From Schmidtea nova (lineage: Eukaryota), in contig CM097883.1 of the NCBI GenBank assembly GCA_044892505.1, positions 158,596,001 to 158,660,000 of the forward strand: 64,000 nt of DNA. Direction: 5' to 3'. A program made the translations under genes and the position numbers. Positions 4,249-62,547 of the stretch are shown here, piece by piece; position 1 is the stretch's first letter, and every line of letters starts with the position of its first letter. The notes beneath the pieces were generated by a model that was not told the DNA's origin, did no database searches, and was given only the letters and a program-made list of their open reading frames with translations.

Positions 4249-5180
4249 TACAAATAAATTATTAAAAAATAAAATAATAAAAATTAATACAAATAAATTA
4301 ATAAAAATTAAATTAATACAAATAAATTAATACAAATAAATTATTAGAAAATAAATTAATAAAAGTAAATTAATACAAATAAATTATTAAAAAATTAATT
4401 AATAAAAATTAATACAAATAAATTAATAAAAATAAATTAATACAAATAAATTAATACAAATAAATTAATACAAATTAATACAAATAAATTAATAAAAATT
4501 AAATTAATACAAATAAATTAATACAAATAAATTATTAGAAAATAAATTAATAAAAATAAATTAATAAAAAATTAAATTAATACAAATAAATTAATACAAT
4601 TAAATTAATACAAATAAATTAATNNNNNNNNNNNNNNNNNNNNNNNNNNNNNNNNNNNNNNNNNNNNNNNNNNNNNNNNNNNNNNNNNNNNNNNNNNNNN
4701 NNNNNNNNNNNNNNNNNNNNNNNNNNNNNNNNNNNNNNNNNNNNNNNNNNNNNNNNNNNNNNNNNAATAAATTAATACAAATAAATTATTAAAAAATAAA
4801 TTAATAAAAATTAATACAAATAAATTATTTAAAAATAAATTAATAAAAAAAATTATTAAAAATAAATTATTAAAAATAAATTATTAAAAATAATTAATAA
4901 AAATTAATAAAAATAATTAAAAAATATTAAAAATAAATTATTAAAAATAAATAAAAATAAATTAAAAATAAATTAAAAATAAATAAAAATAAATAAAAAT
5001 AAAATAAAAATAAAATAAAGACTTCATTTAAACAAAATAATAAATTAAATTGACTTCATTTAAACAAAAAATTAAAATTAAAAAATTCACTTCATTTAAA
5101 CAAAATAAAAAATAAAAAATTCACTTAATTTAAACAAAATAAAAAATTTTAAAAATTCACTTCATTTAAACAAAAAAATT
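4249..5180. repeat. A/T satellite (AATACAAATAAATT-type) grading into ACTTCATTTAAACAAAA repeats
   Basis: Direct reading; almost no G on the plus strand; interrupted by an N gap. Confidence 0.9.
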
Positions 5181-5246
5181 TTTTGGGGGGGGTAAAAAAA
5201 TTTTTAGAGGGGGAGGGGGGTCTGTTCCTGTTCTTGGGCGCTCCCC

Positions 5247-6400
5247 CTACTCTACTGGTTTGGTGCACGGAGAGATTACTCCTAATCGCTGTAACCTTAT
5301 TAGTTTATCGTTAACCTTATTTTCTAAAGCTAATGGTATTGGCCTAGCCTTACAGAACATGGGCTTCGCATCGTCGATTAAATCCATAGAAGCTTTTATA
5401 CCTTTGATTGCTGGTAACACTTGAGATTCTGTTGTCTTCGTGATTTGACACTGTAAGATTCCGTGTCGTGTCTGCTGCAGTATATCCATTCCTATTAGCC
5501 CGAAGTCCTTCATAGATTGAATGACTGTGATTGTTACCGGAAGCACTTGCTTTTCCCATTCCACAGTTGTCAGAAACGAGCCGTAGCATTGCATGATATG
5601 CCCATTGTAGGCTTCAAGCTTTCTTCTTGTCTTGTCAAGCTTCGGTCTTCCCATGTCTTCCCACATCTTGGATGATATGATTGATACAGATGCGCCGGTA
5701 TTTTTTTGCATTTTCACTATCGTTGTATCTAGGAGGACAGGGTTAATGTCACTTGTAATATTATTTGAAGTGAACTAGTTGATGTATTGCGTGTCACTTT
5801 CATCGGCTGACGATGTCTGATCTGCGAATGTTCCGTGTATTGACTTTGTCGAAGATCTGCAAGCTTTCGCAAAATGATTCATTCTGTCGCAATTCGTATA
5901 CTTCTTTCCATATGCCGGGCATTTCTTTGGCTCGTGTATTCGGTCACAGTAATGACACCTTTGATTTCCTTTCTCTTCGAATTTCCTTGATGTTCCAAGG
6001 TTTGATCTCCTCTTTTTAGTGAAATTGATTTCATCGGTCGTAGAGGTAATTGTAGGTTTTGTTTCATGCTGGAGGGATATGAATGTCGATATCTCCTCAT
6101 ATGTTTGCATTTGTGCGAGGATCTCGTTGCATGTTGGAATCGCAACACTCATTTGCAACAAAATCTTTTCCTTAGCATTGATGTCAGATATTCCCGATAT
6201 CAATGCCATGAGGAGCATATCCTCGTTGGGGTCAGTTGAGTCTTTCAATTTCTTGAAGTCACAATATATAGCAGCCTTCTTAAGTCTGATATAGAAATCT
6301 GCTAATTTCTCTTTCGGTTCCTGTCTTAGCTGATAAAATCTTGCTCTCTCAGCTATTACAACTTTGCAATTCTTCCAATCTTGACGCCATTGTTATAATG
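5247..6400 (-). mobile_element. Ty3/Gypsy LTR retrotransposon remnant (gag zinc knuckles, protease, start of RT)
   Basis: CHYCDRIHEPKKCPAYGKK...NHFAKACRS gag knuckle; NTGASVSII (decayed DTGAS protease); KPMFCKARPIPLAL pol start; LTR end ...TAACA followed by PBS-like TGGCGTCAA at 6381-6393. Confidence 0.85.
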
Positions 6401-9227: not shown

Positions 9228-9406
9228 TTCTCCAATGTCATTAATTGTTTGGAACCAAACATGACCGTCCTGATATTTCCTAAACCATGAAGCTGTCTTA
9301 AAGATTTGGGAAATTGGTTTGATACAAGTCTGCTGTGTTGCTATTCGGCAATATACAGGCACTGCGTCACTAATTCGTCCCCCGTTCGGATCAATCCAAT
9401 ATTCAC
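9228..9406 (-). CDS. Collagen COLFI exon ([10 protein letters not shown]...[12 protein letters not shown])
   Basis: Phase-1 acceptor at 9407, donor at 9227; conserved YWIDPN motif. Confidence 0.9.
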
Positions 9407-12400
9407 CTATTAAAATTCAGATATTAAATAAATTATTTTAAATTATAAAAAAAATTTTTAAAAATTGATTTCAGTAAAAACATTTCAATTGCATAGAACA
9501 AAAAGATTAATAAAAATCCAGGTTGATGCACTGAAGGTATAAATGACTGATAGTTTGGGCATACAATATTAAGGTTGGGGTGAATCAACTTGCATGGTTG
9601 TGATTTAAGTGGTTTTAAACTTGTAAAATATGGTCATGGGAAGAAAAGCATAAAATGAGTAAGGATTCAAAATTCAAGAAAGAAGGGATAATTTTTCTGG
9701 TAGCTGCTAGTTCAATTGGTGAAAGGTTAAAGCCTCTGGTAATTGGGAAAAGTGTAATTAAATAATTCTGAGAAATACTGATCTCAAAAGATTAAAAACA
9801 CATTATGTTGTCAAAATTCCAGCATGGGTGACAACAAGGATATTTAAACAAACACTCTCACCCTCTTAAGAGTGTTTTAAAAGTTTCAAGAATGATTTTT
9901 GCGATGCTCTGCATATCGGTTGTGCACCCCATCCCAGAAATGCTAAAATAATTTAATTAGGGATGAAAATTTATTTATGAAAAGCATATTTATTCGCATA
10001 AAGAACATTTTATAACACTTTCCAGATTTCTGTGTGCTGGGTAAAGAGAATTGCCACAAATATCTCAGTTAACCCATAATTTGAGATCTTAGAATCATGA
10101 GCATAGAATGCATTTCCCTTGATTTATTTTTGATTCGACTTTGTTTTTTGGAGTAAACACCATATTTATTTGTTAGGTATTTTTCTCTGCGTGATTTATT
10201 GCCATAGACACTTTTGAACTCAGGATGACGGCTAATGTATAAAAGACTTGCAATGGCTGTCTTCCTGTTGCTCTTTTTGTCGAATAATATCGGACAATTT
10301 GGTCCAAAAATTCCACACCTCCTTTAATTTTGTTGAAATACATGATAACTTCAGGATTTCCGTTTGTCTTATTTATTTTTGGAGATTTGTGTTGCATTGA
10401 CATGATAACCATACTTCTGTTCCTTTTGAAATTGTACTTTCCAATCGCGTGGTCTCTTTGGAAAAGAAATTCTTTGAAGCCCTCTGTACCTTTCTGAATT
10501 TGAAATTCAATAAGTAAAAACGCTTTGTTCCTTCTTACAGTTCCGACTATTGTAAGTTGCTGAGTCAGTAAAAAGTAAGTTTATGATAGGCATGTAAAGA
10601 AATTATCTGTTGCAATTTTCGGCCACATTTTAACAAAGGAGCAGCTAAATATTTGACAATATTTTTTCCTTGATTGTGTTCAATTATACCTTGGCATTTA
10701 TAAAAGGCATTATATTTTTGGCATTATAAAAGTAGACATTTGCAGAGTCACATGAAGCCCTAATTTTTATTCCATATCTAACTGGCTTGGAAGGTATGAA
10801 CATGCAAAAGCTGCATCGGCCACGAAATGTTATTAATTGCTCATCAATTCTCAAGATTTGTCTAGGAGTGTAGACGTGTTGGTAAATGTGAGTGAATTTA
10901 TCAAATACATTGCGGTTTGGTGCTATTTTGTCTTCTCTATTTCGTGTTGATACTTCATCGAAACTAGTTCTCTTAAAATCTTTCGAATACTGTCTGATGA
11001 TAAGTTTCGGAAGATAATTGAGACACCATAATCTTTCGTGAAAAATACTTCTGATTTTGCATTTTTTCTTTCATTAATCCAATTAGGAGCATAATACCAA
11101 AATACTGTCTTAGTTTATTTCTTCTCAAAAGTTTCATTGAAATATCTTTAAATTGGATATACCAATTTGTTGATTCATCAAATCTTTGAGTATATTATTT
11201 GAAAAAGTAGTTTGAAGGAATCAATTGGAGTATCAACCTTTTTCAAAACTGCATTTTTTAGTTCAGGAATATTTTTTATGATATTGTGATCCTCTAGCCA
11301 TCTTTGTACTGAAAAAAGAGTTCTAGAATATGTTTCTTCCTCTCTTGATTAACAGCAATAACTTCAATTTCACTATCAGTTGAAAAGTTTTCATTCGAAG
11401 ACTCATTATTAGGATAAGAATATATAGCTGCATTAAAAATTGAATCGTCTAGAAAAATGTTGGGTAAATATATTATATATATGAGAGATCATGTTTGGTT
11501 ACCATAACAGAGTTACCACAGCAACCAAGTAGCATCATATATGAAAAAATATGATTACAGAGTTAATATGATTAAAGAGTTAAATAAATAATTTATTTAT
11601 CAATGACCATAATATTGAATTTATAATTTGATTGAATAAATTTTTTAAATTTTAATTGTTAATTCAAATTGATGTAAAAAGTAGAGAGAATTTAATGCGA
11701 GGTTTTTAAATATAATATTTTATTAGAAAATTGCAAATATTCATTTTTAAGTTTGATTATAGACAATATCACATCACAAAACAATAAAATTTATCACACA
11801 ATCATAAATTGCAACTTGAATTATTATACAAAACAATATAAAAATCGTGGAAACAAATAGCGAATATAATCAAGTTCAAGTATGATGCTCGCAAATATAA
11901 ATATGTAATAACAATAAAATTTCTATAATTTACAGTACATCAGGTATATTGATTTGTTTTACTTACCTTTTCTAAAAGAACAGACTTGGGTACGGAAAGA
12001 ACACTAACGTGAAAACCATTGTTAGCATAATAACAATAAAGACATTTATGACTAGTGCCTGTCAATGGTCATTCTAAATAAGATGAATTGGGCTACTCAT
12101 GCGCCGTCAAAATACAAATTTCCCTAAACTGAAAACAACAACTTTGCTCTGCATCCTTTCTAATTTTTGCACACAGAGCGAGTACCCCACTAGCCTGGTC
12201 CATGTTTCTTAAGTTTGCTTTATGGATTTTAATTAATTTTAATTGACGTGTACTCGAATTTTTGAGAATCAATATTTTGTATATACTAATTTACATAAGT
12301 CAAACAATATTGATGTTTAACTTTCAGAAATTTCAGGAAGAACCTTTAAAAGAATCTTTAAAATATTAATGAGAAGTTTAAATAATAGATTTCTATCATA

Positions 12401-15400
12401 TTAATAAAACATTTGCACAAAAAAAATTACCATCTGAAAGATCAGGATTATGTTCACTTAAATGTTTGCATGTTCGAGCTGGTACCTCTTTTGTACCTCT
12501 AGGGGTAATTATAGCATTATTTCCAAATGAATGAGCGACAGTAGGGTCATCAGAAAACGTGAGACCCTTGGTGGGAGATCTTAAGCCCATAGGCATAGAA
12601 CTACCAGGAGGTCCTGGAGGGCCAGGCGGACCCATTGGACCCTGGGGACCAGGTCGGCCAAATTCACCATCATTTCCAGGCGGTCCAAATGGTCCCAATA
12701 ACCCTGGATCTCCTCGATCTCCTCTTTTTCCTGTGATGCCTTGAGGGCCTCTTTCTCCGATTAAACCCATAGGACCAGGCGGTCCATCTTCCCCTGGATA
12801 CCCAGAGGGACCTTGTGGACCTTTTAATCCATTAGGACCGGTAAAACCTTTTACTCCACGAACACCTTTTTGACCCATTATTCCGACGGGACCAGCTCTC
12901 CCTACTCTACCTACATCCAATAAATTAATTAGTTAAAATTAATAAAAATATCGACCTGGCTTTCCATTATTTCCATTGTTACCCCTTGCTCCAGGTATTC
13001 CAATTTGACCTCGTTGTCCTTCTAAACCTGGACTTCCTGGTATACCTTTCTCTCCAACTGAACCGACAGGTCCTCTTTTTCCTCTTGGTCCAGCTGAACC
13101 AACAAAACCTGTATTGCCTCTATTTCCTCTCTTTCCCTGAGGTCCAGGTGGGCCAGCAATTCCAGGATTTCCTGGTGATCCAATTGGACCAGGTGGTCCT
13201 ACATTACCTTGCGGACCTCCAAGTCCTTCTTTACCAGTAGGACCTGGATCTCCCATTTCCCCATGTTCCCCAATTTCACCCGGTGGACCAATTGGACCCA
13301 TTTTACCATCTGGTCCCATTGGACCAGGTGGACCATTTGGACCAGGAAACCCAGGAAATCCATCTGCGCCTGAACTACCTGCTCTTCCATTTTCTCCGGT
13401 TGGTCCATCTTTACCACGAGCCCCAATAGCACCTCTTTGACCAGCAGGACCTTTCCGCCCTGTCAAACCATTTTTCCCAGGTTTTCCGGCTCTTCCTTGC
13501 TTGCCTTGTTTTCCCGAAGGCCCAATTGGACCAGTTGGTCCTTGTAATCCTTGTTTACCAGATGACCCTCTCGGACCTTCAGCCCCGGGTTCTCCAGGTT
13601 TCCCTGGTAATCCTTGGGGTCCTTGTTCCCCCGTTTCACCAGAAGGTCCTCTCGGTCCTTTATAAAAATATTCTTTGATACTTATTTTAAATAAATGTTT
13701 TACCTTCGGGTCCAACTTGTCCAGGTGGACCATCTGTACCAGGAGTTCCTGGCTCTCCAGATTTTCCATCTTTACCGGCATCTCCAGCAGGACCAGGTAA
13801 ACCTCTATCTCCAGTATCACCACGACCACCATCCATTCCAATAGGTCCAGGTGGTCCTGGATCTCCATTTGGGCCGGGTAAACCGTCATCACCTGGTGTT
13901 CCCCTTTCTCCCCTAGGTCCTGATACACCACCAACGCTTCTACCAGCAAGAGGCTTTTCAACTTCTGGCTGACCTTCTGGTCCCTTTTCTCCAGGTTCAC
14001 CAGAAGATCCCTATACTAGACTTTAGAAATTTAAGTTCATATATTATACTAACGATCGGTCCCGGTCTCCCACGTTTTCCGGAAACACCAACAGGTCCCA
14101 ACTTTCCTGGAGAACCGGATGGTCCTGCTTCTCCAGATGGACCAGGAGGACCATTCATACCCTTAAAAATTAAATTCAATTTTTAAGTATAATAAATAAG
14201 TAAATCAATGAATTTTTCAATTTATTTTAAAGAAATTGACATATTTATGTATAAATATAATTTTGGAATAAAATTGAGCAATACATTATTTCGCAAATAA
14301 TTATATAACGTCTTAATTGTATTTTTTCACCATGTTTCAAGCACATATTAAAAGATTGGAAACTTTATTCTTCTTTCATAGAAAAAGCTTCGGCACACGG
14401 AAATTGCAAAATTTTCAAAACTTCAATTGAATTTATTCAAATATTTACGATCAAATATGTGATAATTAGCCAGAACAAAGATTATAGATTTCATCGATAA
14501 AATTTTTAGGATAGCATCCTTGAATCAAGTATTAGTAGAGTTAATTTTGAAGTTCTCCCCTTAATTTAATTTATTGTTTGTAAAAGAATTATTGATTGTT
14601 TTAAAATTGTACAGTAAATAAAGATTTTTTGAATTTATTAATTGAGTTCTAGAGCTTATTTTTATTCAATTACACACGTTAGACCACGTTATGAGTAGTA
14701 ACATTTGACAATATGTTTGTAAAAGATATAGGTCACGAAACCGAAGGATCATTATATTTATTTACAAGAAGAGGCAAGATGGATATCTGAAATTATTTAG
14801 AAAATATCAAATCTTTTCTAAATATGCTTGAAATGGAAGAAAAGTGTGAAGTTAGACCATTCAAAAAATATTTCTATTTCATCTAAAAATTGGAGTTATT
14901 TTTGAATAATCTAAAAATATTTAATATACGAAATTGGTTAAGTAATAAGAAATAAATTTCTATTTGAATTTTCTGCACTATTGTATATAACGTGAATATA
15001 TTAATTGTTATTAACGCGAGTTGATGATATGTACACGAAAAGGAACACAAATGTGCTAATCATAAAGCTATGTATTCAAAAATGTTTGATTAAAATTCAG
15101 TCTAGTATACGGTGACCAGATTTTTTGATAGTGAATGTGGTACAGAGGGGTGGTTTTTCCAAAAATAAAAAAAAAATTTGCCGCATTTTAGTTTGGTGTC
15201 ATTTTCTTTATAACATTTGGTGATATATGGAAATTCCTTTGCTAATTCAACAGTAAAAGTACATTTTCTTCTCTTTACATTTACGTTTGATGACATGATT
15301 ATCGCTTATCCTTCAAGAATTTTTTTTTAATGAAAATAAAATATTTATTAATTATTACTTTTAACTTACAATTTAATTAAATTGACAATTTATTGTTGAA

Positions 15401-18400: not shown

Positions 18401-21400
18401 NNNNNNNNNNNNNNNNNNNNNNNNNNNNNNNNNNNNNNNNNNNNNNNNNNNNNNNNNNNNNTTATTTGACCTTCAACAAAGTTTTAATTTTGGTTTTAAA
18501 TATACTCGCGCGCCCCCAATGGTGGCGCGCCCCACAGGTTGAGAATCGCTGAATTAAAGTGAAAAATAAGTTGAAATTTTTGAAAAAGTAAATATAAATA
18601 TTTTTTCGGGAGAGACTGGTATAGGCGTATGCCAAGTGATGAGACAAAATCAAATATAATAATAAAATCAAAAGGGGTATCCCTGGAAATAAATAAATAA
18701 TCAAATGGAAAACCCGAGCGTTGTGAGAAACCCTGGTTGTCAATAAATTAATTTAAGTACACCAAAAATATTAATTGCATTGAAACCCCGAGAAAAAAAG
18801 AAAAAACGAAATGCATTGGGAACTTGAATCGTGAATAAATTCATTCAATTACACCAAACAAATTAGTTGTGAAACCGAGTTGTAATGATAACCCAAAATT
18901 TTAATAAATTTATTTATTTAGATAAAGTGTCGGAAAATAGGAAACCCGCAGAATTGCAATTGGAATTGATGACCATGAGATGCGCCTGCCAACAACTGAA
19001 TTTAAGTAATTGAAAATCCAATTAGAAAAAGACTATAAAAGGAGTTGATAAACTATTTACCTCACTAGTTGGTAAAAGAGATATTCAAAAATTCAAAATA
19101 AAGTTACAAGAAATTGACAGTGTGATAGTATCAGTGAATTAAATCAAATCTGCGAACGAGGAAAGGCATTTCTCATTTGGATATTTTACTTATCTCAGCG
19201 AAAGTGCAGACAAAAGAGCGTTATTGACAAGGTGAAAATTGTGTGCTAGATTAAATAAAAGTTATTATGTTGGGTTAACTTTAAATAAGAGCACGAGGAG
19301 CCAGAATTTAAAACCGACGAAATTAAAAACACCCAACATAATGTAAATAAGTGATGCACATAATTTGGGTCACGTGCCAAATACGTTTTTTCTACTACCT
19401 CTTGTTAGCGTTCGAAATTTTATATCTTTTTAAAGTGAATGAGCTGGTCAAAAATGTTGATTTCTCAAAATTTAGAATAGGAAAGATGTTTAATTAAATT
19501 TGAAGAAAATTTAAAAATTCTTTTGAATAAATACTAACATGAAAATATAAAATGCTGGTTTCTTAGTAGTAGCATTAATTAAATATTAAATAAATAATAA
19601 AACAAAGTGTTAAGGTTGTATTATTAGCCTTATTATTATTATTGCTATTCTTGTTGTTATTGTCGCTGGTATTATCGTGGGTGTCCTTTCGGTCACAGGA
19701 TGACCCCCTCCCCTTTTTTAAAATTTTTTTGTCATTTCGGTTGGTTGTCAGAATGACAATCATAATGAAGGTGTTAATAATAATTTAAAATTTAAATAAA
19801 AGATTTTAAAAATCGATCAAAAAAACAATTTCTATAGAAATTGCCAAGAAAAATAATAACTAAAGAAATAATTACAGAAAATATTAATAAGGCTGAATAT
19901 TAAAAAAGGAAAAACGAAAACATTTGTGATCGAAAAGCTAACATCAGAGTATTAACAAGAAACTATTAAAACTGGGAAAAGAATTAAAATTAACTAAAGA
20001 GAAAAGTTCGGAAATTAAAAGAAATTTTGGAAAGATTAAGAGACTAACAAGTTTTATCTGAATATAACCTTGTGTTCTGCAGATACGTGAGTAGCGATTA
20101 TTTTTATACTTTTTTTGTTAGTTTAATAAATATTGGTTACAAAGTGTTTACTTTGTTTGTTACATTATAAATCTAAATACACAAGCACGCATGAACACAT
20201 ACCGACACATACATAGCATTCACCCCAGCTGTCCCGATACGCTTTTATAAGTGACTCGGCTGGTTTCAAAAATTCTCTAATACATACCTACATTACGCAA
20301 AGTAAGTCTTTGTCGTAAAATTTATTAGGTAAAATCTTTTGATTATAAAATAATCCTTATCAATATTTGACTGATTCCAGCTAGATTTAGTAAGTCAAAG
20401 GTTTGAGTCCCATTCAGGCTTTTTGAAAGTATAAAATGTTGGTTTCTTGGTAGCAGCATTAATTTAAAGAAAAGATGGAAACATTATAAAAACAAATATA
20501 CTTCATACGTAGTTCTTAAGAAAAACTACTATTGACAACATCCATCTACCATAAATACTCAAGCAGAATAAAAACAGCAAGATAAACACAACCATAAAAG
20601 AACATACTTTATCAAGTTTAATCAAAAACCTGTATGGAGAAGCTCACTAAGAAAAAAGGAACAAGAAAATGTGATGCAAGCATGTACGCTTAGTAATCCA
20701 AGAGACTTAATATACAAAGTACAGAGACACGTGATAATCACTGCGGAAACACATCATTCTCAGAGATTCCTAAGGGTTATTTTATAATTTCAATTTCAAC
20801 TTTAATATCATTATAATTAATATAATTATACTCATCATTATTGATAAACACTTAAATAAACATGGTAAAGATTTAATTAATGAAAAAAAGTCACTCATAT
20901 AAACTTCACACTGTATATTTTAATTGTCGATCGAAGGGAATATCCAATATTAGAGATTACAAAAAAGACTGTAAGAGAAAAATTGATGTCTGATTTTAAA
21001 GTCTTATCAAAAAATCCTAATAATCATTATGAACGCATTATATGTGAAGCGTTGTCAAAGATAGTTTTGAATTCAAAACTTAATTTGCAGAATGTTGTGA
21101 ACACGTGTATTTTGAATGTTTTTAAATATGTTTGGATGACAGATGGATTTATTGTTGCATTAATTGAATCGAATAATAAAATAAATTTTGTTAAAATTAA
21201 ATAAATAATTTTAAAAATTTTGTTAATAATTCAAAATTTTAAATGTTGATATGGGCACAAAAACAACCAAACGTATTAACTGTTGCATGTTCGAAAAGAT
21301 GAAAAAGTGAAATTTGTCTAATTATGTTATGTTAATTTTGTGTATTGTGATAATTTAATCATATGCAATAAAACAGCTAGTATAAATTTATGACTTACAA

Positions 21401-24400
21401 ATGTTCCTGGTGGACCCATTATACCATCTAATCCTTTTGGGCCTCTTAATCCAATTTTACCCATAAGTCCAGTTTCTCCAACTGGGCCACTAGATCCCTT
21501 GATTCCAGGAGGACCTACTTCACCAGGAGGACCAGGTTTCCCGTCTTTACCAGACTTTCCATCTTTACCATTGGTTCCAGGTAAACCCTCAAAACCAGGA
21601 GGGCCAGGAGGACCGTCGGGACCTATTGGACCTGGTTGGCCAATTTTACCCGAATTTCCTGGAAAACCTATTGGACCTGGACTACCGGAAGGACCTTCTG
21701 ATCCGTCTTCTCCCGGTGGTCCTTGTTCTCCTAAGTCTCCGCTATCTCCTGCTACACCAGTAATTCCAGTTCTACCTTTACTTCCTTTGTCTCCAGGACT
21801 GCCAACAGGGCCCTGTTTCTCATTAATAATGCTTATTTAGTAAAAAATCTTACTAAAGGGCCTCTAATACCACCCGGTCCCATTACACCCATTACACCAG
21901 TATTTCCAGGTAATCCTCTGGTACCCGGTGAGCCCATATTTCCTTTTGGACCAACTGCACCTTTTGCACCTGGGTGACCATTGGTTCCAAAAACTCCATT
22001 TTCTCCTCTAGGTCCTGGAGCACCATTTAGACCAGGTTTACCCATTGAACCTGGAGCACCTCTAGATCCAGCCTCCCCTTGACTTCCTGGATTACCGTGT
22101 AAACCATCTTTCCCAGGAATTCCATCAGTTCCAGGATTTCCGGGACTTCCATCGAGACCTGATTCACCTCTTGAACCCTGAAAGTATTATTAATAGAAAC
22201 CATGCTATATTTTGAATTTAGACATTTATAATAGAATAGATACAAAAAACTCTATCAAAGATTGTCTGAAACAAATAATGTGTAGCATTGCTGAAAATAT
22301 GTAATAACGCCACAAAACAAATAAAAGATTAAAGAACCAAAAATATTTTATTTATATGTAAATTATACATACATTGGAGCAATATGTAATTAATAAATTA
22401 AAACTCAACATTAAAATTTTATTAAAATAAGTATAATTTTCAAAACTAATTTAATTATTTTGATTAAACATTTTTTAAAGTCAAGTATAACATACAATTT
22501 TTATATTAAATAATTAATAAATAACAAAATAAGCCCTTGCTAAAAAAAATTTTTTGTAAAGTGAAAATTTTTGATAATAAAATAATCCTTATCAATCTCT
22601 AATTCAAAATATAACTAAAATCTTTAACGTGTTTTGGATGTAAACAAATTTACATCTAATAAAAAATGAGATAATTCACGAGAAATAAATAGCAAAACAC
22701 GTTGAAGATTCCAGTTATATTTTGAATTAGAGATTGATAGAGTTATTTTATAATAGAAAATTTTCACTTATTAAATTTTTTTTGCAGCAAAGACTTTATA
22801 TTGTTATTTATTAATTATTTAATATATAATTAACCCTCTAATGCCATAATTATTTTTCGAGATGGTAAAAACAAGTTAAATAAAACAAGTTAACTACTAT
22901 AACGGACCGTTATACAAATTAAAAAAAAAACTAATGCATAGCCTACTATTCGACTACAATGTGGCAAGAAAAGTTTATGGATAACGGTTTAGATGTTCAT
23001 GCTATCATAGTTTTGGGAAGGCCCGCCTAGAGGCGGATTTAGGTATTAGAGGGTTAATGCTGCTAAATTATTTAAAAAAATAATTTAAAAAAATTAATCC
23101 AATTATTTATTTTTTATATTTAAGAAAACATTATCTTGTCTACATATTTATGCATTTTATTTTCATTTATAAAATTATTTAACCGAGATTTTATTCAAAT
23201 CTAACAATATTGAATCTAATTTAATTCTGTGTAAGTAACATATTTGAATAACTCCCACAAAATTGATGGGGATTCATAGACAATGTGATAACTTGTCAAA
23301 ATAAAACAATCTAATTTCGTACAGATTTTTCAATTTCTTGTGGCTTGATAATTTAATTTATAAAATAGTGATGCAGAAATAGTTAATAAAAGAAGCGTAA
23401 AACTTTGGAAAATTTTGGAAGACAAATTCTTTTTCAAAAAACGATTATAATCACTTGTTAGTGTGCTAAATAAAGAGATAGTGAGGGCAACATAGTTAAT
23501 AGCTGTTGTTTAGCCAAAACAATTTTGCAAAAGGGTGCTATTTATGTGAAGGAGCGAAAATGCAGATTTTAAAGATGTATTCTAATAAAGTATAACTAGA
23601 CATCAATTTTTAATAATGTGTATATCATATTCTTTTGTATAAGAGATTTTGATCATAAGACTTATAATTTGTTATGCAAAGTATGTGGAATCAGAATTAT
23701 CTACCACAAACCCAATAAAAACAATGTTTACTTTATTGCCAGCTGGTCCTACTATTCCCCGTTCTCCTCTAGGGCCTTCATCACCAGTTTCCCCTGGCCT
23801 TCCTTGATCTCCTTTTTGGCCTTTCGGACCAGAAGGTCCCTGCTTACCCTCTAGACCAATCGGGCCTTCCTCTCCTTGAGATCCTTTCGGCCCTGATACA
23901 CCTGGATTTCCTGAAGCTCCTCTTTGCCCTCTTTGGCCAACCCTTCCAACAGGGCCTTGCGGACCAACAACACCAGCCTCTCCTCTCACGCCGGGTCTCC
24001 CGTCAACTCCTGGATACCCCTGAATGCAATTCATAAAGGTTTCTATGAAAATAATTCCAATTAAACTGGAGGTCCCAAAGAGCCAGGCGGACCAGTTTTT
24101 CCTGCTAGACCTGAATTTCCAGAATCTCCTTTGGCACCTTTGATTCCACCTTCTCCTCTGACGCCTTTATTTCCGATTTCTCCTGGTATTCCAGACTGGC
24201 CCGGAGGTCCAATCGCACCTTGTGGTCCTGGTGATCCTGGGACGCCATCAGTGCCTTGCTTTCCTCTTTCGCCAGTCGGACCTTGTATACCAGCAGGACC
24301 AACTCGACCAGCAGGCCCTCGCAAACCTTGTGGACCTTGCAAACCTGGTTCTCCATTTGATCCCTTTAATTCGTTTCACTATCTACCAAATTATGTATAA

Positions 24401-24764
24401 CGTTTTACTTTCAATCCAGGTAACCCAATGTCCCCTTTATCGCCTGTTAAACCTCGATTACCTTGTGGTCCAGTTCCTCCTTCTGGACCAATAGAACCTC
24501 CTAATCCTGGCTCACCACGTGGACCAATAGGGCCAACGACACCATGACTACCCGGAGTACCATCTTTTCCTGGAATACCTGATGATCCTGGTTTTCCCGA
24601 TTTTCCTCTTGCACCATCTCTTCCCGGAGGCCCAATGGGCCCCAGTGCTCCTGGATCTCCAGGGGGTCCAGGTTTTCCCATAGGACCAGGATCACCTCTA
24701 GGTCCTTGGCTTCCTTTAGCTTGATTTGGAGATGTTGCTTGCCTTCTTAATCTATTTAACTTCT
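9228..24764 (-). CDS. Fibrillar collagen alpha chain (10 visible exons; 5' signal exon and 3' COLFI exon(s) not found)
   Basis: GT-AG exons: 24764-24409, 24363-24067, 24019-23732, 22177-21854, 21812-21399, 14161-14054, 14010-13704, 13657-12956, 12910-12431, 9406-9228. The spliced frame gives 340 triplets, then COLFI motifs [18 protein letters not shown] and HVWF. Confidence 0.93.
9640..9850 (+). mobile_element. Tigger/pogo DDE transposase fragment
   Basis: [20 protein letters not shown]...AWVT resembles the TIGD-type [12 protein letters not shown]...AWMT motif. Confidence 0.6.
10140..11430 (-). mobile_element. piggyBac (PGBD4-like) transposase pseudogene in a collagen intron
   Basis: [28 protein letters not shown] and [23 protein letters not shown] are diagnostic piggyBac motifs; disrupted. 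Confidence 0.85.
12431..14161 (-). CDS. Collagen exons 6-9 (C-terminal helix, telopeptide, start of COLFI)
   Basis: Introns of 43, 46 and 45 nt at 14011-14053, 13658-13703 and 12911-12955. Confidence 0.93.
15108..15813 (-). mobile_element. Non-autonomous hAT (Blackjack-like) element with perfect 8-bp TSD
   Basis: TIRs TACGGTGACCA at both ends; TSD GTCTAGTA at 15100-15107 and 15814-15821; internal KRRKCTF...KC N-terminal remnant. Confidence 0.88.
17688..18551. mobile_element. hAT/Charlie-type MITE with perfect 8-bp TSD (spans an N gap)
   Basis: TIRs CAGCGCTTCTCAACC / GGTTGAGAATCGCTG; TSD AATTAAAG on both sides. Confidence 0.88.
20470..21120 (+). mobile_element. Penelope-like element remnant (RT thumb plus GIY-YIG C-terminus)
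   Basis: [28 protein letters not shown] resembles the PLE endonuclease end; upstream HPSTI-like motif. Confidence 0.55.
21399..22177 (-). CDS. Collagen exons 4-5 (36 + 46 triplets)
   Basis: Uninterrupted Gly-X-Y; 41-nt intron 21813-21853. Confidence 0.93.
22495..22830. repeat. Palindromic foldback MITE-like sequence (~130-bp imperfect arms)
   Basis: TATCAATCTCTAATTCAAAATATAACT...CGTGTTTTG pairs with CAAAACACG...AGTTATATTTTGAATTAGAGATTGATA. Confidence 0.7.
22834..23053. mobile_element. piggyBac-family MITE
   Basis: TTAA|CCCTCTAATGCC ... GGTATTAGAGGG|TTAA. Confidence 0.8.
23732..24764 (-). CDS. Collagen exons 1-3 visible (furin site RLRR, N-telopeptide, 99 triplets)
   Basis: Introns of 45 nt (24364-24408) and 47 nt (24020-24066); first exon begins after a probable phase-1 acceptor TTTTTAG. 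Confidence 0.9.
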
Positions 24765-26124: not shown

Positions 26125-28110
26125 CACCAAAACCTCGATTTGCGTCGTCCCAATTTGCGTTGTTTTGAAGTTGCGTCGTTCATAAATTTTTGTAATTTCA
26201 AAGTTGCGTCGTTAAACTTTCTATTTGCGTTTCTTAAATTTAAAACGGGGATTCCCAATTTTTTCAGTCATATCTAACAAAATTAGAATGTTTCTTTAAT
26301 AGAAAGAATAAACAATAAAACCACACCTACAATTGTTTCTGGGACCATGGAGCGAGTCATAATGCAATATATTTCTAGGAATAAATAAAAATGGAGGATG
26401 GGCTACACAAATATTATCAAACATAAACAATTTAATAGAGAATTCAGAGATTTTCTTTAACCGAAAATATTATTTAGATTTGTGTTTTTTTATTCTGTCT
26501 AGTCTGTAGTGAGTATAGTTTTGTTTCATTATTTCAAAAATTCGTTAAATACTCACTCGTTCTAAGAACTCGCAATAATTCAAAATTTTATGTAAAAATA
26601 TAGAGTTTTGAATAATTATTCCTGCAGTAAGGTTAATAAAATTTAGTTAAAAGAAGTTAAAATAAGCCAAAAGCGAAAACAAATTAGTTTGAAACAAAAA
26701 TTAGAAGTGTTAAAGCGATTTAAATCTGGAGAAAAAGCCGTTGACATTGGAAGAAATCTTGGTTTAGCTCCTACTACAGTAAGCACAATTTGTAATCGAG
26801 ATGCTGATCAAATAAGAGAGTTTGCTAAATGCTACACCATTACAATCTAAACAAATTACCAAAACAAGAAGTTCTACTATGGTAAAAATGGAGTCTCTTC
26901 TTAGCATTTGGATAGAAGACCTAAGTCAGCGAAGAATGTCACTGAGCAAAATGTTGATTCAAAACAAAGCTTTTAGTATTTTTAACGATGTTCAAAAAAA
27001 TTCTCCATCATCTAGCAGTGAAAATTTAGATAAATGTGAAGCCAGTCAAGGTTGGTTCGAACGTTTTAAAACTAGAAGGTGTTATATCCAACTTTAAATG
27101 TTGTTATTTACGACGAACGTTTAGCAACTTATTGTAGCAACTGATGGAGATGATAATACCACCATGAAGCAATTCTGGAAAAATTATAACATCATGATGG
27201 CTATCAAAAATATCAACTAATCATGGATGGAAATAAAAACAATTTGCATGAATGGTGTTTTGCGAGAAATATGGCCAGAATGTGTTTGTAAACCTACAAA
27301 GGAAGTTAATGCTCTACCATCTATTCGTAGAGAACTTGCTGAATTAGCTAGAGAAGCAAACTTTGAAGGTATGGAAGAGAATGATATTGATGAGTTACTG
27401 GTATCACACGATGAAGGGTTTACTAATGAAGATTTGATTGCTGTAAGATCTTTTGAGCATGCTTTGCTGTTGGGCATGCTTTGGAGGATGATACGGATAC
27501 ACGTGATGTTATTCCAGAATCAAAAAATTTAACGACTGGTCATATTTCAGAAGCGATGCAACACATTTCACAAGCAATGGACATATTTTCAGATAATGAT
27601 CCCGACGAAAATCGAAGTTTAAAAGTGGCAAAATCTGTAGCTGACGCTATCAATTGTTATAAAGAACTTTATTTGGAAAACAGGCAAATAAAATTCAGCA
27701 AACTTTGGATAATTTTTTAACAAAATCAGCACGACAAAAAAAATCAGTCAACAGAAACGGTTATCGAGTTAGAATCTTCAAGTTCGGAATAAAAAAATAA
27801 ATTATCTAAACTATAACTGAAAATTATAATTATTTTGGTGTTTATTGAATTTTTTTAATTTTATTTATTATTTTTTATGTTTTCTTATTAAGTTTTATAT
27901 GTTTTTAACTTATTTTGAATTAAAAGATTTTGTTGCATTAAATATGTGTGTATGTATTTTTTATTAGAAACAAGATTCTGAATTTTTTCTATAAATATTT
28001 CAGTCTGGAACCAATTAAGGGAAAACATGAAGAAACCCTTAAGAAAAATTATTTCGATTTGCGTCGTTTTTCTTTGGTCCCTATTACCGACGCAAATCGA
28101 GGTTTTGGTG
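26125..28110 (+). mobile_element. Tigger-like (pogo superfamily) DNA transposon, internally deleted
   Basis: Perfect 23-bp TIRs CACCAAAACCTCGATTTGCGTCG with TA TSDs; CENP-B-type HTH (KRKQISLKQKLEVLKRFKSGEK...ASQGWFERFK) and TIGD1-like C-terminus. Confidence 0.92.
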
Positions 28111-34400: not shown

Positions 34401-35162
34401 TTGAGAACATTTTGATCTATGGTCTAAAAAATGGAAATAAAAGGTTTTAATAATGATTTTAAAAGAAATGGTTAATATAAATTTTATGAAAAAATATTTA
34501 TGATATCAATGTTAAAATGTTGACAATAAGATCTTATTAATATTAACTTTGTTTAAAATCACTAATTGTAAAAATGATATATATTATAGAAAATTTAAAA
34601 AGAAAATTCAGAAATGCATTTAGAATGAGCATTAAAACATATAGATAGGAACTGACCTTCTGGGCTGGCATTTATCGAGATGCATAGAACAAACAATACA
34701 GAGAGAATGAGAGAACTCCACATTTCTCAAATTGTGATTTATCCGAACAGGAATGTTTAAAATTCCAAAATTTATCACCGTCAATAGAAAGTTATCGTTT
34801 GGACAATTTTTGAATTTCAATATCGAATTTTATCAAAATTGCTGAGAAAATTCGATTGGAATAAATGAATTTTATTGGAATAGAGACAATTTTACAACTT
34901 CGATTTCAATTCGACACATACAGTTTCTTTTCTTTACACGACGTCCGCAGAAACAAGCGGGCAATGTGTGCCGTGTAAATGTTATGGGCGAGACGGTGAT
35001 ATTTAGCAAGGCGATTTTCTCGCCTGTACATTCTTGATTCCATTCAGCTTATAATTCTAACCTTTAATCATTATTGATCGATGAAAATGCATTAGAAAAT
35101 ATATCAAATCAATCAAAAACAAATCCATTTATTTAAATCAAATAATTATTTTGTAATAATCA

Positions 35163-41300: not shown

Positions 41301-44300
41301 TTACATTTTTAAGAAAATTAATAATCCAACAATTTTAATTAGTCAATTTAATAATAATTAATCTTAGTAGTAATTTTAAATTGACTTTTTTTATTAAATT
41401 TATGCACTAATAGGAATTAAACAAATTTTAGTTTTGATAATTTAATTTAGTATTTTAGTAAATTTTGTTATTATTTTTAAATAAACGCATTTCAATGGAA
41501 ACAATAAATTAAAACAAATTTAATTAGTAAATTTTATAATAAATAAACTTAGTAATAATTTTAAATTAACTTTTTATAACAATTTTAAATTATCGCATTT
41601 TAAGAAAAATAAATAATTTAAACAAGATTAATTTAACTTTAAGTAATTATTTTAGGAAACATTTTGTATTTCAATGTAAACTAATAATTTAAATAATGTT
41701 TAGTTAAATTAGTAATAGTTTTTTTTTAAATAAATGTATTTCAATGCAAACAATTAATTAAAACAAATTTGATATTTATTAATAATTTTACTTTAGATAA
41801 TTATTTCAACGGTCCAGGAGGAATCTCTAGAAATGGTAATTTATTTGAAAATTTAATTCTTTAATTTTAGACAATATCAGGGACTTTGGCAAAAAGAAGA
41901 TAAAAATTTTAATTGTGTTTTATTTAAAATTATATTAGGGTGGGTGGGTTCCGTTTTCACCCTTTATTTATTAATGCATGCCAGTCGTTGTGGTGGGCGA
42001 CCGTAATCCAACCAAATTGGAGGCCTCTGCAATGTTTGCTTATTTTTGACTTAACATTAATTAATTTCGGTCATAGTGTCTATGACGATATCTTGCCGGC
42101 ACATTCATGGCGTATGAAACACTACGTTGTGGGTGATGTTTTGGTAGCTGGCTACCCTTGCTTATCTGAGACGTGATCGCTATAGGTAGCGAACTATTGA
42201 TGCCCAGGTCCTATTGACCCTACTTTGGGGGAGGCACAGACGACCCTTGTGGACGCGATTACTTACCCAGCGTGTCTTTTAGGCACAGGCATTTAATCAC
42301 CGCTCTTTAGGACTGGCAATATTAAAGCACCTGTTCTTTATCTTGTCTCTTCTTTTCTTGATATAGATTAATAATCATAATAGTAATAATAATATTAGTA
42401 NNNNNNNNNNNNNNNNNNNNNNNNNNNNNNNNNNNNNNNNNNNNNNNNNNNNNNNNNNNNNNNNNNNNNNNNNNNNNNNNNNNNNNNNNNNNNNNNNNNN
42501 NNNNNNNNNNNNNNNNNNNNNNNNNNNNNNNNNNNNNNNNNNNNNNNNNNNNNNNNNNNNNNNNNNNNNNNNNNNNNNNNNNNNNNNNNNNNNNNNNNNN
42601 NNNNNNNNNNNNNNNNNNNNNNNNNNNNNNNNNNNNNNNTAATTGTAATAAAAAAAAATAATTATAAAAAAATAATATTAAATAAAATAATAATACTTAT
42701 AAAATATTATTAGTAATAAAAATAATATTAAATAAAATAATAAAATAAATACAATAAAAAAAATTATTTAAAACTTTTGAAAATTGCGCTAAAAATTTAC
42801 TTTGATTAAACAAAATGACGCTTAAATTCAAAAAAATTGCGACAAAAAATTTAAACTAAAATTCAAAAAAAATGCGGTAAAATTCAAAAATTGCTCCAAA
42901 AAAAATAATTAATTTACTTTATTTAAACAAAACGGCAGTAAAATTCAAAAATTGCGCCAAACAAATTTGTATTAATTTACTTTATTTAAACAAAACGGTG
43001 GTAAAATTCAAAAATGGCGTCAAAAAATAAAACAAAAAATGACCTTGACCTTTGATCTCGATTACGTAATAATGATGTCATAACTCGTGTGTTATGTAGA
43101 CACACCGATAAATATTGCGCAATAACGTGTGTTCTGTGTAAAACCCGAGAGTTACGTAATCATGTGTGCTATGTAAAGTCCGAGCGATTACGTAATATAC
43201 ACGTATGGGGGGTATTGGCGCAGACCTGACACTTCCTCCTACTATTGTGACACTTATCGAACTTCACACTTATCAAATCTGAGACTCATCGAGAATGTAT
43301 TGTAATTGTAAATGCATAATTTTTAATAAAGTCATCGAAAACATCATATCATAAATCTAACCATTTTCCGTAACTATGGTATCTGTATGTTGACTTCCGA
43401 AAATACGAATATGATCAATCGCATCGTTTACATTATCCACAACTTCCATTGTACAACTTAGAGTACCATATTCTTTTTTCATCTGTGTCGCAAGCTGAGG
43501 GTTGTAAAATTTCAAGGACTTTGCCAATTTGGGCCCCGAATATATTTGAACCTTATTAGAACAATGAATTATGGAATTATCATGTTCATATTGGTATAAA
43601 ATTGAATATGAGTGCTTTAATATTAGTATTTAAATATTTATTAAAAAGTTATAAAATATTATTTTTAAGGTATTAAAACTTTTTTTATCTAAAATTCTTA
43701 AAAATGTAATAAATATAATAAAACATTTCATAATGTGAAAATATTAGTTTTCTAAAATTTACAAAAAAGTTTCAATTTTAAAATAGTAATGTTTTATAAA
43801 TTTAATTTTAAAATATTCTTAAATTTCACTCTTTTTCCATGCTTTATATAAGGTTGCTTTCTATATATATGTGTGCCACAAAATTACAAATCAATTTTTT
43901 AGTGCTTTTCTCTCAACCGATTCACTTCAAATTTTGCACACTTGCTCACTTCCGGTGACAATACATGGAAATGAAAACAAATTTGAAAACAAATTTTTTT
44001 TTAAAAATTTTTTTTGAGGACACACGAAAAATGTAATATAATTTTCCCTTCTACAAAATATAACAAAAAAAAATTTCTCAGCCAAGTGGAGTTCTGCTCG
44101 CATAAAGCATGGATTTGAAAAAAGAATTTTTTTTTGATTTACTAGTTATTAAAAGTTTTAAAACATGCAATATTTTTTACTAAGGTTTTTCGATTTTCAC
44201 TAATAACATTTCTAATACACTTCACTTAAATTATCTTCGATCACGAATGGCAAATTTAATATAATTCACATTTACGTATAAATGGAAAGACGATATTAAT

Positions 44301-47300
44301 CATTTACAACTGCAACTAAAATCTATTTTCTAAACTCTACTCTAAAAACAAACAATACATTAAATCAGCGTTTCCCAACCCTTTTACGATTATCGCCCAT
44401 TTCCAATTGCTAAAAATTCAAATCGCCCACTAGTGGGGGATATCGCCCAGGTTGGGGAGCACTGGGGTAGACTAGATGTAACTACATGTAAGGTGATGTG
44501 TGTGCGTCATATATTGTTATACTATAAAGATTGACAAATTGAGGGAAGACGTATATATAGATGTAGGTTATTTATAGGACTTGTTTGTGTTCATTTGTGC
44601 TATATAGATACATAGATTGTATCTAGATTCTAGAATTTAGAAATAATAAAATTTTAAAGCAAACAGTGCAAAAAAGTTGACATATGCAAAAACAACATGA
44701 CGAAAACATCACCCACCTAAAATTTCAAATCACTCACTTGTGGTCGATATCGCCCAGGTTGGGAAACACTGCATTTAATAATTGTCATCACTGGACGGAT
44801 ATGTATTGTACCTACCAAGTTCTTGTTCTCCTAGTGAAATGAGTAAGGTTATCTATAAGATTTTAATTAATTAATTATTTTCTATTATTGTAACAACTAT
44901 CGGTTAAATATTATTCTTTTCCTATTCAACAATTTATTTGCTACCTGCTCATATATTTTACCCCAAAAATATTGATATTTTTCAACTTCTTAAATAAATA
45001 ATAAATTTTAATTGCTTTGTAAACGATTATTTGTACATTTCAAATTGATTTTTATTCAATAATATAATCCCAACACAATTTTCGATCAATGATAAAAATT
45101 AAAAAAATTAATTTGATAAATTATTTCACTTAATAGAAATCTTTACTTGGTTTTGACCTAACATGTCGTATAATTTTTCGAAAAATTCTGTTCCAATTAA
45201 TTTTTTATGAATCAAAAGTGTCTCCATTGCATTGCAGGCGGCTGGATAGTCACATTTTNNNNNNNNNNNNNNNNNNNNNNNNNNNNNNNNNNNNNNNNNN
45301 NNNNNNNNNNNNNNNNNNNNNNNNNNNNNNNNNNNNNNNNNNNNNNNNNNNNNNNNNNNNNNNNNNNNNNNNNNNNNNNNNNNNNNNNNNNNNNNNNNNN
45401 NNNNNNNNNNNNNNNNNNNNNNTTATAATTAAAATATTTGATTAATTTCGAAAACGGCGGGAAACTTCAAAAGTTGTTAATAAATAAATAAGTATTATAT
45501 TGGACAGAAAGATAGCTTTTTTAGGTAGAGTTAAAGAAGTTGTTACGAATTACAAAAAATATAAACGTTGGAATTTTTCTTATATAAGAAGTTTTAAAAA
45601 TTAAAAAAGTCAACGATTTTAAGCTAAAGTAGACAATTTTTAATCTAACATGAATAACATCAGTAAAACAACATAAGATTAAAAGATTTTTGTTTATTTG
45701 AATAAAAAAACAAACTATAGAGAATAACCAATCAGTCATGGTAACAGTAACAAATTTGGGAAATTATTTTCCAGATAGTCAATTAATTAAATTATTAATT
45801 AAGATTAATTACTCTTTCACGTGTATGATCACGTGACAGACTTAATAACGTAAGAAAGAAGGATAAAGAAGTCAATGTGAAAATGTTTGAAATAATAAAA
45901 ATGTTATAATATTAATAAGATAAAATTTATTATAATTTATATTTCACGTAAAATCTATGAATGAGTCCACAACAAATTGAGCCAGGTGAAATTCCCATTA
46001 AAATCAATCAATTTGTGAACTTTGTCGCGAAACGATAAAGTGAGTAACCGTGCTGCATTGTGCCACGCACGCGCTATGTGCTCAGCAATCTGTTATTCTC
46101 CCGCACATTCAACTATACTTTCGGGTCAACTACGTTAATACAGGTAAAGGTGAAATATAAATTTTATCACAAAACTTAATTGATTTTTAAGTGGCAATAC
46201 TTTCAATTGAACGCTAGGTTAATGTGCAAAACTTCTTACTCAGTAATAATTACCTATTCTCAGTGCCGTCTCTAGATTAGCGTGCTCGTCAACAAACACA
46301 TGGCATATTCCTTCAGAGTGTCCCAGCACCGGAATCGATTTACTCATGCGTTTAATTTTTTGAATCATTTGACTGGAACCTCTCGGAATAACAAGATCAA
46401 TGTATTTATGTAGTTGCAACAAACTCTGTACGTCCTCTCGTTTGCTCACCAAATTCACAGCGTCTGAGTTAAGACCCTGAGATTCCAAAGCCTGTTTAAC
46501 TATCTTAAATAAGCACTTATTGCTATTGTATGCTTCCGATCCACCTTTCAACAAAACACCGTTGCCACTGGCGATTGCTAAAGATGCAACCTGTAACAGA
46601 CAAAACGTAGATGGCATTAAAGCATGCAAATAACGCTACCTGTGGCAAGCAGTCAGGGCGAGATTCAAATATCACCAACAGTACCCCAATGGGAATTGTA
46701 ATTTCTTCTAAAATCAAATCCTGGGCTAATTCAGTTTTCCGAAGAACTCGATTTAGTAGATTATCACAGGAATCAGCAATTTGATTTAATCCGATTGCCA
46801 GGGTTTGCAGTTTAGAAGAAGTTAGTTTCAATCTTGACAGTAAATTTTCATCGAGACCTAAAAATGAAGCAAGATTTTAAATGGGAAATTTCTTGACTTT
46901 TTCTAAAAATTTGAAATTTATCTCGACAAGAAAAAAAATGCTTTTTGAAACATTAATATGTTTGTTATTTGAATAGAACAAAAAAAAAGTTCGTGCGATT
47001 TTTGATAGTAAAATATATTTGATATTGAAACATTAGAGACCAATAATACCCTTTTTTCATCGAAGTAATCACCATTACACTCAACGATCTTTAGCCAATG
47101 TGGCACCAATCTTTGCATGACGGTATTGTTGAAATCTGCGGATTTGGAATCAAAAAATTGACGGACCGCATTTATTTCATCAACTTCAGTTTTGAACTGC
47201 CTGACCTTATACAGTTGTCAAGAGATAATGAAAGGTGGTAATCAGTTAGCGAAATGTCGAAAGAATAATGAGGGTTTGTTGACGTTTCTGGATGAGTGCT

Positions 47301-60767: not shown

Positions 60768-61356
60768 CTAAATTATATAATGTGAAAAAATTTTCAAAAT
60801 CGAATTACGTTTAAATAATAATTATAATAATGATAAATAATAAATTTAATAATAATATTATTATTATGTAAAAGTGAGCTATTAAAAATTACAAGAGTGA
60901 TTGAGTGGGGGTTTGGTGACATTCCCAGTGAAAGAATTGTAATGTTCTGTGGTCACACCAATCCATTCAATCAAAGAGTGTTTTGGAGTCTTTATTATTA
61001 TGTCGATGTATTTGTTGTTTCATTGTATATTTTATGCACCATAATAGCTCTCGTTAGTAATGTTTGGATATTTTTTAACTGTATGTGTCCATTTGTGTCC
61101 GTTTGAATTAATAATTACTAATTCTGATTAAATAAATTAATATGTTCGTTGATAATAATATTACATACTTTGATTAGAGATGTTATAATCATTTAATGCC
61201 TTGTCTTATTTATATTTAATGTTGTGTGATTACCTATGTAAAAATTTTGTAATACTGAATATTTTGTTATTTTTATAAAAGATGTGTTTAAAAGATGTTA
61301 GCGGATACCGCACAAAAAAAATATATATATATTAGTTAACGCTTTTGAATTGTCTT

Positions 61357-62547
61357 ATGAATTTTATTTATAAAATATATTTGCCAAATTCTAATTACTT
61401 TACGGTTCAAGCCAGCAATGATAAAACGATGAGAGATATATTGAAAAACAAGTTGATATTTTACAATCTTGATATTAAAAATTTGATGCTAATCAATTCT
61501 GACAACGGGGAGTTAATTAATTGGGATTCACATTCTACCTTGATTTCTAAAGCAACATCCCAATTAAAGTTAATTTACAGAAAAGACCTCAACGAATCTA
61601 AATTTCATTTCAGCCATAAAGTTCAAAGAAAAGTATGCTTTGATAAATCATATTGTGACCAATGTCATAAATCTGTGTTTACTGGAAGATTGTGCAAATT
61701 GATCTATAAATTGTTTCGTTACCGATGCATTTCTAGTAAAAATAAAATATGTGATCCATTTCTGCACTTTGAAAATTTGAATGTTAATGTGAAAGATGAG
61801 AACAGAATACCTAAATCTCTTAGCATACCAAACTACTCGTTAAAATCTAATTCTTTGAAATCATTTCCTTCTAAAATATTTAGAAAATTTAGTCAAAATA
61901 AAGTATCCAGTGTAAATTCTTCTCATTTATCAATGACTAATTTTCGAATTTCTAAAGTGATAAAATCCTCAAATGTGATTTTTAATATTTCTGAAGGTGA
62001 AGTCAATTCACCGAACTTTAGCAACACTGATTCAAATAAAGTTATTAATTTGAAACGAAGTCACCCTGACAGTACAAGACAAAACATTGAAAAAACAGTA
62101 AAATCTTCATATGATGATTATTGTATCCTTTGCAATGACGATAATAATAAATATTCCAAAACATTCAAATTTACCTCCTTAGGATTAATAAACAATAGCA
62201 TTAAAGCGACAGGAAACTATAATATTGATAAAACCACTTACAACGTACGTTTCTTGGAGCCAAATAGATACAATGTTCTGTGTATTTTAAAAATAATTAT
62301 TTCCAAATATAGTCCGGTAGTTCAAATTCAAAATGAAAGTTCAATTCACAGTTCCAATCCCCCATACACAAATACAGTTGCCCAGCAACACAAACTTCGG
62401 CCACCGGAACACTACGAAGTATTATTGAATTTATTTGTAAAATTACTTAAAATTAAATTCGGGGAAACAAAAATAAAATTGATGAATCGGCAACCACACC
62501 AAAAAGCAGAATACCTTGGTGTGATTCCCGGTTCATCAAAAGAATGA
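61357..62547 (+). CDS. Raf-like N-terminal region: Ras-binding domain + atypical C1 domain + Ser/Asn-rich tail; no kinase domain in window
   Basis: IYLPNSNYFTV...TMRDIL...LINWD matches RBD consensus; H-x12-C-x2-C-x9-C spacing equals the Raf-1 cysteine-rich domain. The 3' part of the ORF may include in-frame intron sequence. Confidence 0.7.
   Translation: MNFIYKIYLPNSNYFTVQASNDKTMRDILKNKLIFYNLDIKNLMLINSDNGELINWDSHSTLISKATSQLKLIYRKDLNESKFHFSHKVQRKVCFDKSYCDQCHKSVFTGRLCKLIYKLFRYRCISSKNKICDPFLHFENLNVNVKDENRIPKSLSIPNYSLKSNSLKSFPSKIFRKFSQNKVSSVNSSHLSMTNFRISKVIKSSNVIFNISEGEVNSPNFSNTDSNKVINLKRSHPDSTRQNIEKTVKSSYDDYCILCNDDNNKYSKTFKFTSLGLINNSIKATGNYNIDKTTYNVRFLEPNRYNVLCILKIIISKYSPVVQIQNESSIHSSNPPYTNTVAQQHKLRPPEHYEVLLNLFVKLLKIKFGETKIKLMNRQPHQKAEYLGVIPGSSKE

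Follow-up and report, generated by a model that had tools for sequence, protein, structure and literature searches.

Structure of the Collagen Gene and Its Neighbors

The window analyzed here, a stretch of 64,000 nucleotides from Schmidtea nova, holds most of a fibrillar collagen gene on its minus strand. A six-frame scan found Gly-X-Y runs between 24714 and 12597 of this strand, and the helix that they compose amounts to 340 triplets (3060 nt) in nine exons. Exon 1 (34657–34723) was located because the signal peptide of the planarian collagen colF-7 led there; it contains the start codon and 22 signal-peptide-like codons, with 14 of the 22 residues matching colF-7 by eye, and closes with a phase-1 donor. 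Exon 2 (24409–24763) encodes a putative furin-type RLRR site, a short N-telopeptide with Lys-Gly, and triplets 1–34, with no minor helix. The helix continues through exon 3 (24067–24363, triplets 35–67), exon 4 (23732–24019, triplets 68–99), exon 5 (21854–22177, triplets 100–135), exon 6 (21399–21812, triplets 136–181), exon 7 (14054–14161, triplets 182–193), exon 8 (13704–14010, triplets 194–227, with a phase-1 donor), and exon 9 (12956–13657, triplets 228–305). It ends in exon 10 (12431–12910), where triplets 306–340 are followed by a C-telopeptide with Lys-Gly and the start of the C-propeptide. Exon 11 (9228–9406) carries a COLFI segment (PF01410; match at 9228–9401, E 1e-12) that corresponds to the first half of the domain; the remainder of the C-propeptide, with the second COLFI half, was not found within the 64-kb window. 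Five of the helix introns measure 41–47 nt, a sixth is also short, and two are long (1554 nt and 7237 nt). Two of the introns, at 13703–13658 and 12955–12911, split a Gly codon and thus depart from the phase-0 rule described for vertebrate collagen genes (PMC2852846).

Upstream of the collagen gene, 43357–52100 of the same strand holds exons of a gene in which an amino-acid kinase (PF00696) is fused to an aldehyde dehydrogenase (PF00171), and this gene likely encodes pyrroline-5-carboxylate synthase, an enzyme of proline synthesis. One of its introns contains degenerate minus-strand reading frames (49037–49838) that we take to be actin-like and that probably represent a pseudogene. On the plus strand, an open frame of 403 codons (61336–62547) has no Pfam match and presumably combines a Ras-binding segment with a C1-like Cys/His segment. 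We also take the fragment at 5170–6392 to resemble an LTR retrotransposon, and two fragments within collagen introns to be remnants of piggyBac-like (10069–11194) and pogo-like (26816–27720) transposases.

A 12-Residue Interruption in a colF-7 Orthologue

By the six-frame scan and a codon map, Gly begins 336 of the 340 triplets. The sole exceptions are triplets 199–202, that is, helix residues 595–606, which are encoded inside exon 8 at 13965–13930 of the minus strand; the four-triplet break that a preliminary description of this DNA had reported is thus borne out. Four misses placed at random would be adjacent with a probability of about 6e-7. Within the interruption lies a Gly-Arg-Ser-Val core that forms a Gly-X-Y-Z step (13933–13944, minus strand).

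Judging from sequence comparisons, the gene is the orthologue of planarian colF-7 and is not identical to the Schmidtea mediterranea reference. The comparison used the first 400 residues of each colF chain as given in the consulted part of PMC6453901 (Supplementary Data 1), and 355 of 378 residues matched colF-7 (SMESG000045473.1, dd_Smed 840, 1294 aa) by eye and without gaps. All three published colF-7 primers map once and in order, with 3, 3, and 1 mismatches, the two forward primers in exon 5 and the reverse primer in exon 9, so that they flank the break; none of the three published colF-2 primers maps to the window. Both chains have an N-terminal part of 39 residues, a helix of 1020 residues, and a single 12-residue interruption that starts at helix residue 595, and all ten visible break residues of the reference are identical to those of the window. 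They differ in about 6% of residues and are hence distinct sequences. Because identity at ten of ten break residues is expected about half the time for chains that are 94% identical, it shows no special constraint. Collinear identity, primers, helix length, and break size all agree with colF-7, and by this match the host gene is planarian and not annelid.

Homologue searches yielded no full-length orthologue (one COLFI fragment, none of 309 candidates for a break-centered query, and two non-animal matches). Among ten close COLFI matches looked up, the only animal-named one belongs to Schistosoma japonicum, a hint at a flatworm origin. A profile search gave 150 proteins, mostly fragments, with 40 or more triplets in 16 of 151, and the taxa named among the ten long profile matches looked up were fish, skate, starfish, lancelet, and mussel. 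One fibrillar collagen fragment similar to the window's C-telopeptide (P0049) bears a bacterial name, sits on a contig of 1278 bases, and is probably animal contamination.

The break itself is already tabulated in the 2021 supplement of Chan et al. (PMC8072372, Dataset S2), a study that, in its consulted parts, describes most planarian colF chains as interrupted. Dataset S2 contains, for Dugesia japonica as well as for S. mediterranea, one chain that has a single 12-residue interruption, a helix of 1020 residues, and a C-propeptide of 235 residues and lacks an N-propeptide domain. The accession and attribute columns of its sheet 1 are numbered differently. We rejected the label colF-4 that sheet 1 attaches to the 12-residue row, since the attributes follow the numbering of sheet 2, under which the row is dd_840 (colF-7); with sheet 2 numbering, the N-terminal part, helix, and C-propeptide add up exactly to the protein length in five of six chains, and colF-6 is off by 2. 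The pharynx-enriched "colf-7" of PMC8072372 conflicts with colF-11 in PMC6453901, likely through the same numbering cause. As far as the consulted parts of the colF-7 literature go (PMC6453901, PMC8072372, and PMC8503668), the number and length of interruptions are given, not their position or role. All colF genes are reported to be expressed in muscle (PMC6453901), and RNAi of colf-7 (dd_840) to reduce neoblast repopulation (PMC8072372, Dataset S1), a result that concerns the whole chain and comes from a paper with inconsistent numbering.

The Interruption Is Exonic and Translated

Published mass spectra from decellularized planarian matrix bear directly on the break. Nine rows of Table S2B in PMC8503668 contain EVEKP, and the five of these that were viewed represent one peptide, which begins at colF-7 residue 613, is hydroxylated upstream, and ends in EVEKPLAGR with S to follow. 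Its Glu634 is helix residue 595, the same as in the window, and the spectra in these rows read ten of the 12 break residues, all identical to the window. Because the matrix peptides of the orthologue read through the break, we conclude that it is translated and not spliced out.

These peptides weigh heavily against the notion that the break is an artifact, whether an assembly error, a spliced-out intron of 54 nt, or the decay of a pseudogene, and we regard that notion as hardly credible. The assembly data favor the break, in that runs X1–X3 of organism A each span 12450–14200 in a single contig with 0 differences in three of three, these being contigs and not raw reads, from one study that may be the assembly's source. 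The preliminary description was wrong, however, in its claim that no GT-AG intron restores the frame: a candidate at 13973–13920 (minus strand, 54 nt, phase 1) leaves 334 perfect triplets, and this frame-restoring pair is a point in favor of an artifact, together with the lack of any listed RNA run for organism A and of the last C-propeptide exons in the window. The candidate is the shortest of the GT-AG pairs that restore the frame and clear the break. We reject it as an intron because its GC content is 50%, as against 13–29% in the nine real introns, because in-register pairs of that kind occur at 183 of the 1334 positions tested, because a spliced X5 contig reads through its donor, and because the orthologous peptides keep residues that it would delete.

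X5 belongs to a related organism, with about 90% identity, and was treated as spliced because its contigs omit three neighboring introns exactly, joining, for instance, exon 7 to exon 8. One X5 contig is continuous over 14009–13937, which takes in the donor as well as 29 of the 36 bases of the break, and two others cover 13929–13883. Coverage thus has a gap at 13936–13930, and three of the eight differences within 14009–13937 are listed, so that X5 is evidence of continuity and not of the break letters. The 43 X5 differences among those listed (40 of 88, plus 3) fall in 39 codons, 32 of them synonymous and 7 not, and none of the 39 alters a helix Gly, which speaks against pseudogene decay. The spliced X5 contig and the orthologous matrix peptides therefore agree that the break is exonic and is not spliced away.

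Sister Chains Are Interrupted at the Same Site

A check for a matching break in partner chains, likewise suggested by the preliminary description, found parts of one at helix residues 598–604 in peptides of colF-1, colF-2, and colF-5. In the rows of PMC8503668 that were looked up, colF-1 peptides (six rows) end in GSV K with I to follow, which puts Lys at helix residue 598. The colF-5 peptides (four rows) read GNV QIAGR and then S; in helix numbering, their Gln is residue 598, their Gly 601, and their Arg 602. Those of colF-2 (four rows) have R and then SVG, in which Arg is again residue 602 and the Gly that follows is residue 605, a shift of one residue. The Gly-Arg-Ser-Val core of the window is thus matched in colF-5 (AGR.S) and colF-2 (R.SVG). 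A similar word, Gly-Arg-Ser-Met/Val, occurs just before the main helix of S. mediterranea colF-1 and colF-4, after a Val-Lys-Gly-Pro motif. Targeted look-ups in Table S2B, including six proline positions, gave no break-spanning peptide for colF-3 or colF-6. The position of one colF-6 peptide, 932, lacks the expected register shift, and some position cells in the viewed part of that table are visibly wrong.

Domain matches extend the pattern. In all six chains with a short N-terminal part (colF-1, -2, -3, -5, -6, and -7), a Pfam collagen match starts at helix residues 605–613 and none spans 598–604, and in four of the six a match ends at 594–596. None of 200000 shuffles reproduced the shared start, for paralogues that are kin and not independent. 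From the edges of these matches, colF-3 and colF-6 probably share the break as well. The longest interruptions of colF-1, -2, -3, -5, -6, and -7 measure 7, 7, 10, 7, 11, and 12 residues, respectively; in three further chains of S. mediterranea there is none (Dataset S2). Compared with the window, colF-1, -2, and -5, and probably also -3 and -6, have their break at the same helix position, and colF-2 and colF-5 have the core letters in common with it, whereas the break in these five chains is 7, 10, or 11 residues long, causes a net register shift, and goes with helices of 1018–1022 residues; colF-1, -3, and -5 contain further small interruptions. The alignment of the break across chains and its shared core are not described in the consulted parts of the literature that we found, and Fig. 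S2 of PMC8072372 may draw the positions. What we add to the prior record is therefore the matching position of the break in sister chains, together with their shared core.

Origin of the Interruption

The preserved length and register of the colF-7 helix had led the preliminary description to a history in which four adjacent Gly codons of a 340-triplet chain were substituted and nothing was inserted, and three of the four Gly-free codons indeed lie one base from a Gly codon. Comparison with the paralogues makes this history improbable and the claim probably wrong, since chains with helices of 1018 and 1021 residues share a 7-residue core with a one-residue shift, and helix length is of the form 3n+1 in four of the six paralogues. 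Moreover, the shared Arg lies at 602 in colF-2 and colF-5 and at 603 in colF-7, and Gly601 of colF-5 is in the upstream register. This offset and the colF-5 Gly601 together suggest that the Gly before Arg-Ser is the old helix Gly displaced by one.

We hypothesize instead that the ancestral form was a 7-residue break consisting of one lost Gly plus a Gly-X-Y-Z step, in which a Gly-free triplet at 598 would have been followed by Gly-Arg-Ser-Val at 601–604, with the register advanced by one. Such a core shifts the register by one residue, which would explain the helix lengths of 1018 and 1021. colF-7 would then have lost Gly595 (now Glu, one base from a Gly codon) and gained two residues, one ahead of the core, which moves Arg to 603, and a Gly behind it, returning the helix to 1020 residues with zero shift. 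Its preserved register would thus be the sum of three one-residue shifts, a net result and not the outcome of four substitutions. This history is drawn from peptide fragments and lengths, and its direction is conjectural.

Comparison with Known Collagens

The gene belongs to the COLFI family by several features: a C-terminal COLFI propeptide (first domain half), a major helix of 340 triplets where the consulted part of PMC2852846 gives about 1014–1020 residues, and a Lys-Gly pair immediately preceding the helix as well as one in the C-telopeptide, in keeping with the X-K-G/A-X cross-link pattern of telopeptides (PMC5120351). It departs from the classical fibrillar collagens (types I–III, V, and XI), which have an uninterrupted helix, in its four triplets of 340 without Gly; it also lacks the minor triple helix of a classical N-propeptide, as 39 residues precede the helix and no other Gly-X-Y run occurs upstream. 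The vertebrate clade C collagens XXIV and XXVII likewise combine COLFI with conserved interruptions, namely a Gly-X-Y-Z step and two Gly substitutions in succession, but have a helix of 997 residues, a TSPN N-propeptide, and no N-telopeptide (PMC2852846). The likeness is one of defect kind. With a 1020-residue helix and no N-terminal domain, the present chain falls outside clade C. FACIT collagens have no COLFI propeptide and consist of several short helices, and this chain, with COLFI and one long helix, is not one of them. The interrupted colF chains are likened to FACITs in PMC8072372. No annelid chain appeared among the named homologue matches. Annelid and abalone fibrillar collagens have imperfections near helix residue 600 that are much shorter than 12 residues. 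A literature search on the Riftia and annelid imperfection gave no paper evidently about it among the excerpts returned.

A Candidate Three-Chain Hinge

On balance we favor the view that the translated 12-residue interruption of colF-7, co-located with the shorter breaks of its sister chains, is a flexible hinge common to all three chains of the molecule. Fibrillar chains associate at their C-terminus and fold toward the N-terminus (PMC5120351). In the model that we propose, the chains would trimerize via the C-propeptide, and the helix would zip over 138 triplets, open at the aligned breaks, and close again over 198 triplets; breaks of unequal length would loop out locally. As the breaks fall together, every trimer built from these six chains is predicted to have all its strands open at a single point. 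For collagen IV, a persistence length of about 2 nm was fitted at three-chain interruptions, as against 83–86 nm at one-chain interruptions (10.1101/2020.09.27.315929), and a 15-residue interruption in a recombinant helix is flexible and trypsin-sensitive at its center (PMC10765305). The preliminary description had placed the break at about 2.55 D periods, and the arithmetic holds for a D repeat of 234 residues. With that value, the break lies at 2.54–2.59 D and, if planarian fibrils have this repeat, would fall in their gap zone.

The main rival reading, to which the trypsin sensitivity of that recombinant helix lends some weight, is that the break is mainly a site of recognition or cutting, at which the conserved Ala-Gly-Arg-Ser-Val-Gly core would let a protease or receptor act on the fibril in remodeling and regeneration. 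Such a role is compatible with a hinge and would account for core letters that are common to colF-7, colF-5, and colF-2 beyond what plain flexibility needs. As the main function we nonetheless consider it unlikely, if not negligibly so: a single matrix peptide carries the first nine residues of the break intact, and the cut between Arg and Ser is the digestion enzyme's own and hence uninformative on cutting in the animal. Still less probable, in our judgment, is that the break is a relic without function of its own, tolerated because thin planarian fibrils accept an imperfection that partner chains share. Its length does range from 7 to 12 residues among paralogues, chains without interruption exist, and an additional Gly change is tolerated in collagen XXVII, whose helix already has conserved interruptions (PMC3242791); but position and core letters have been kept across at least four paralogues, and outside the break Gly is in place in all 336 triplets of this chain.

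A broader proposal, which we hold tentatively and rate as slightly short of even, is that six of the 11 planarian fibrillar chains have a break of conserved sequence and matched position at helix residues 598–604 and form jointed molecules, in which a gap-zone site that bends or is cut in all three chains, arising from an imperfection perhaps shared with annelids and mollusks, is used in remodeling. The loss of one Gly from a vertebrate fibrillar collagen causes disease (PMC10765305), and here abundant COLFI collagens of planarians carry a break of 7–12 residues at one shared site. If that break is a hinge, the planarian fibril would be built from jointed rods and would offer a natural model of how a helix refolds past a long defect, in an animal that is open to RNAi.
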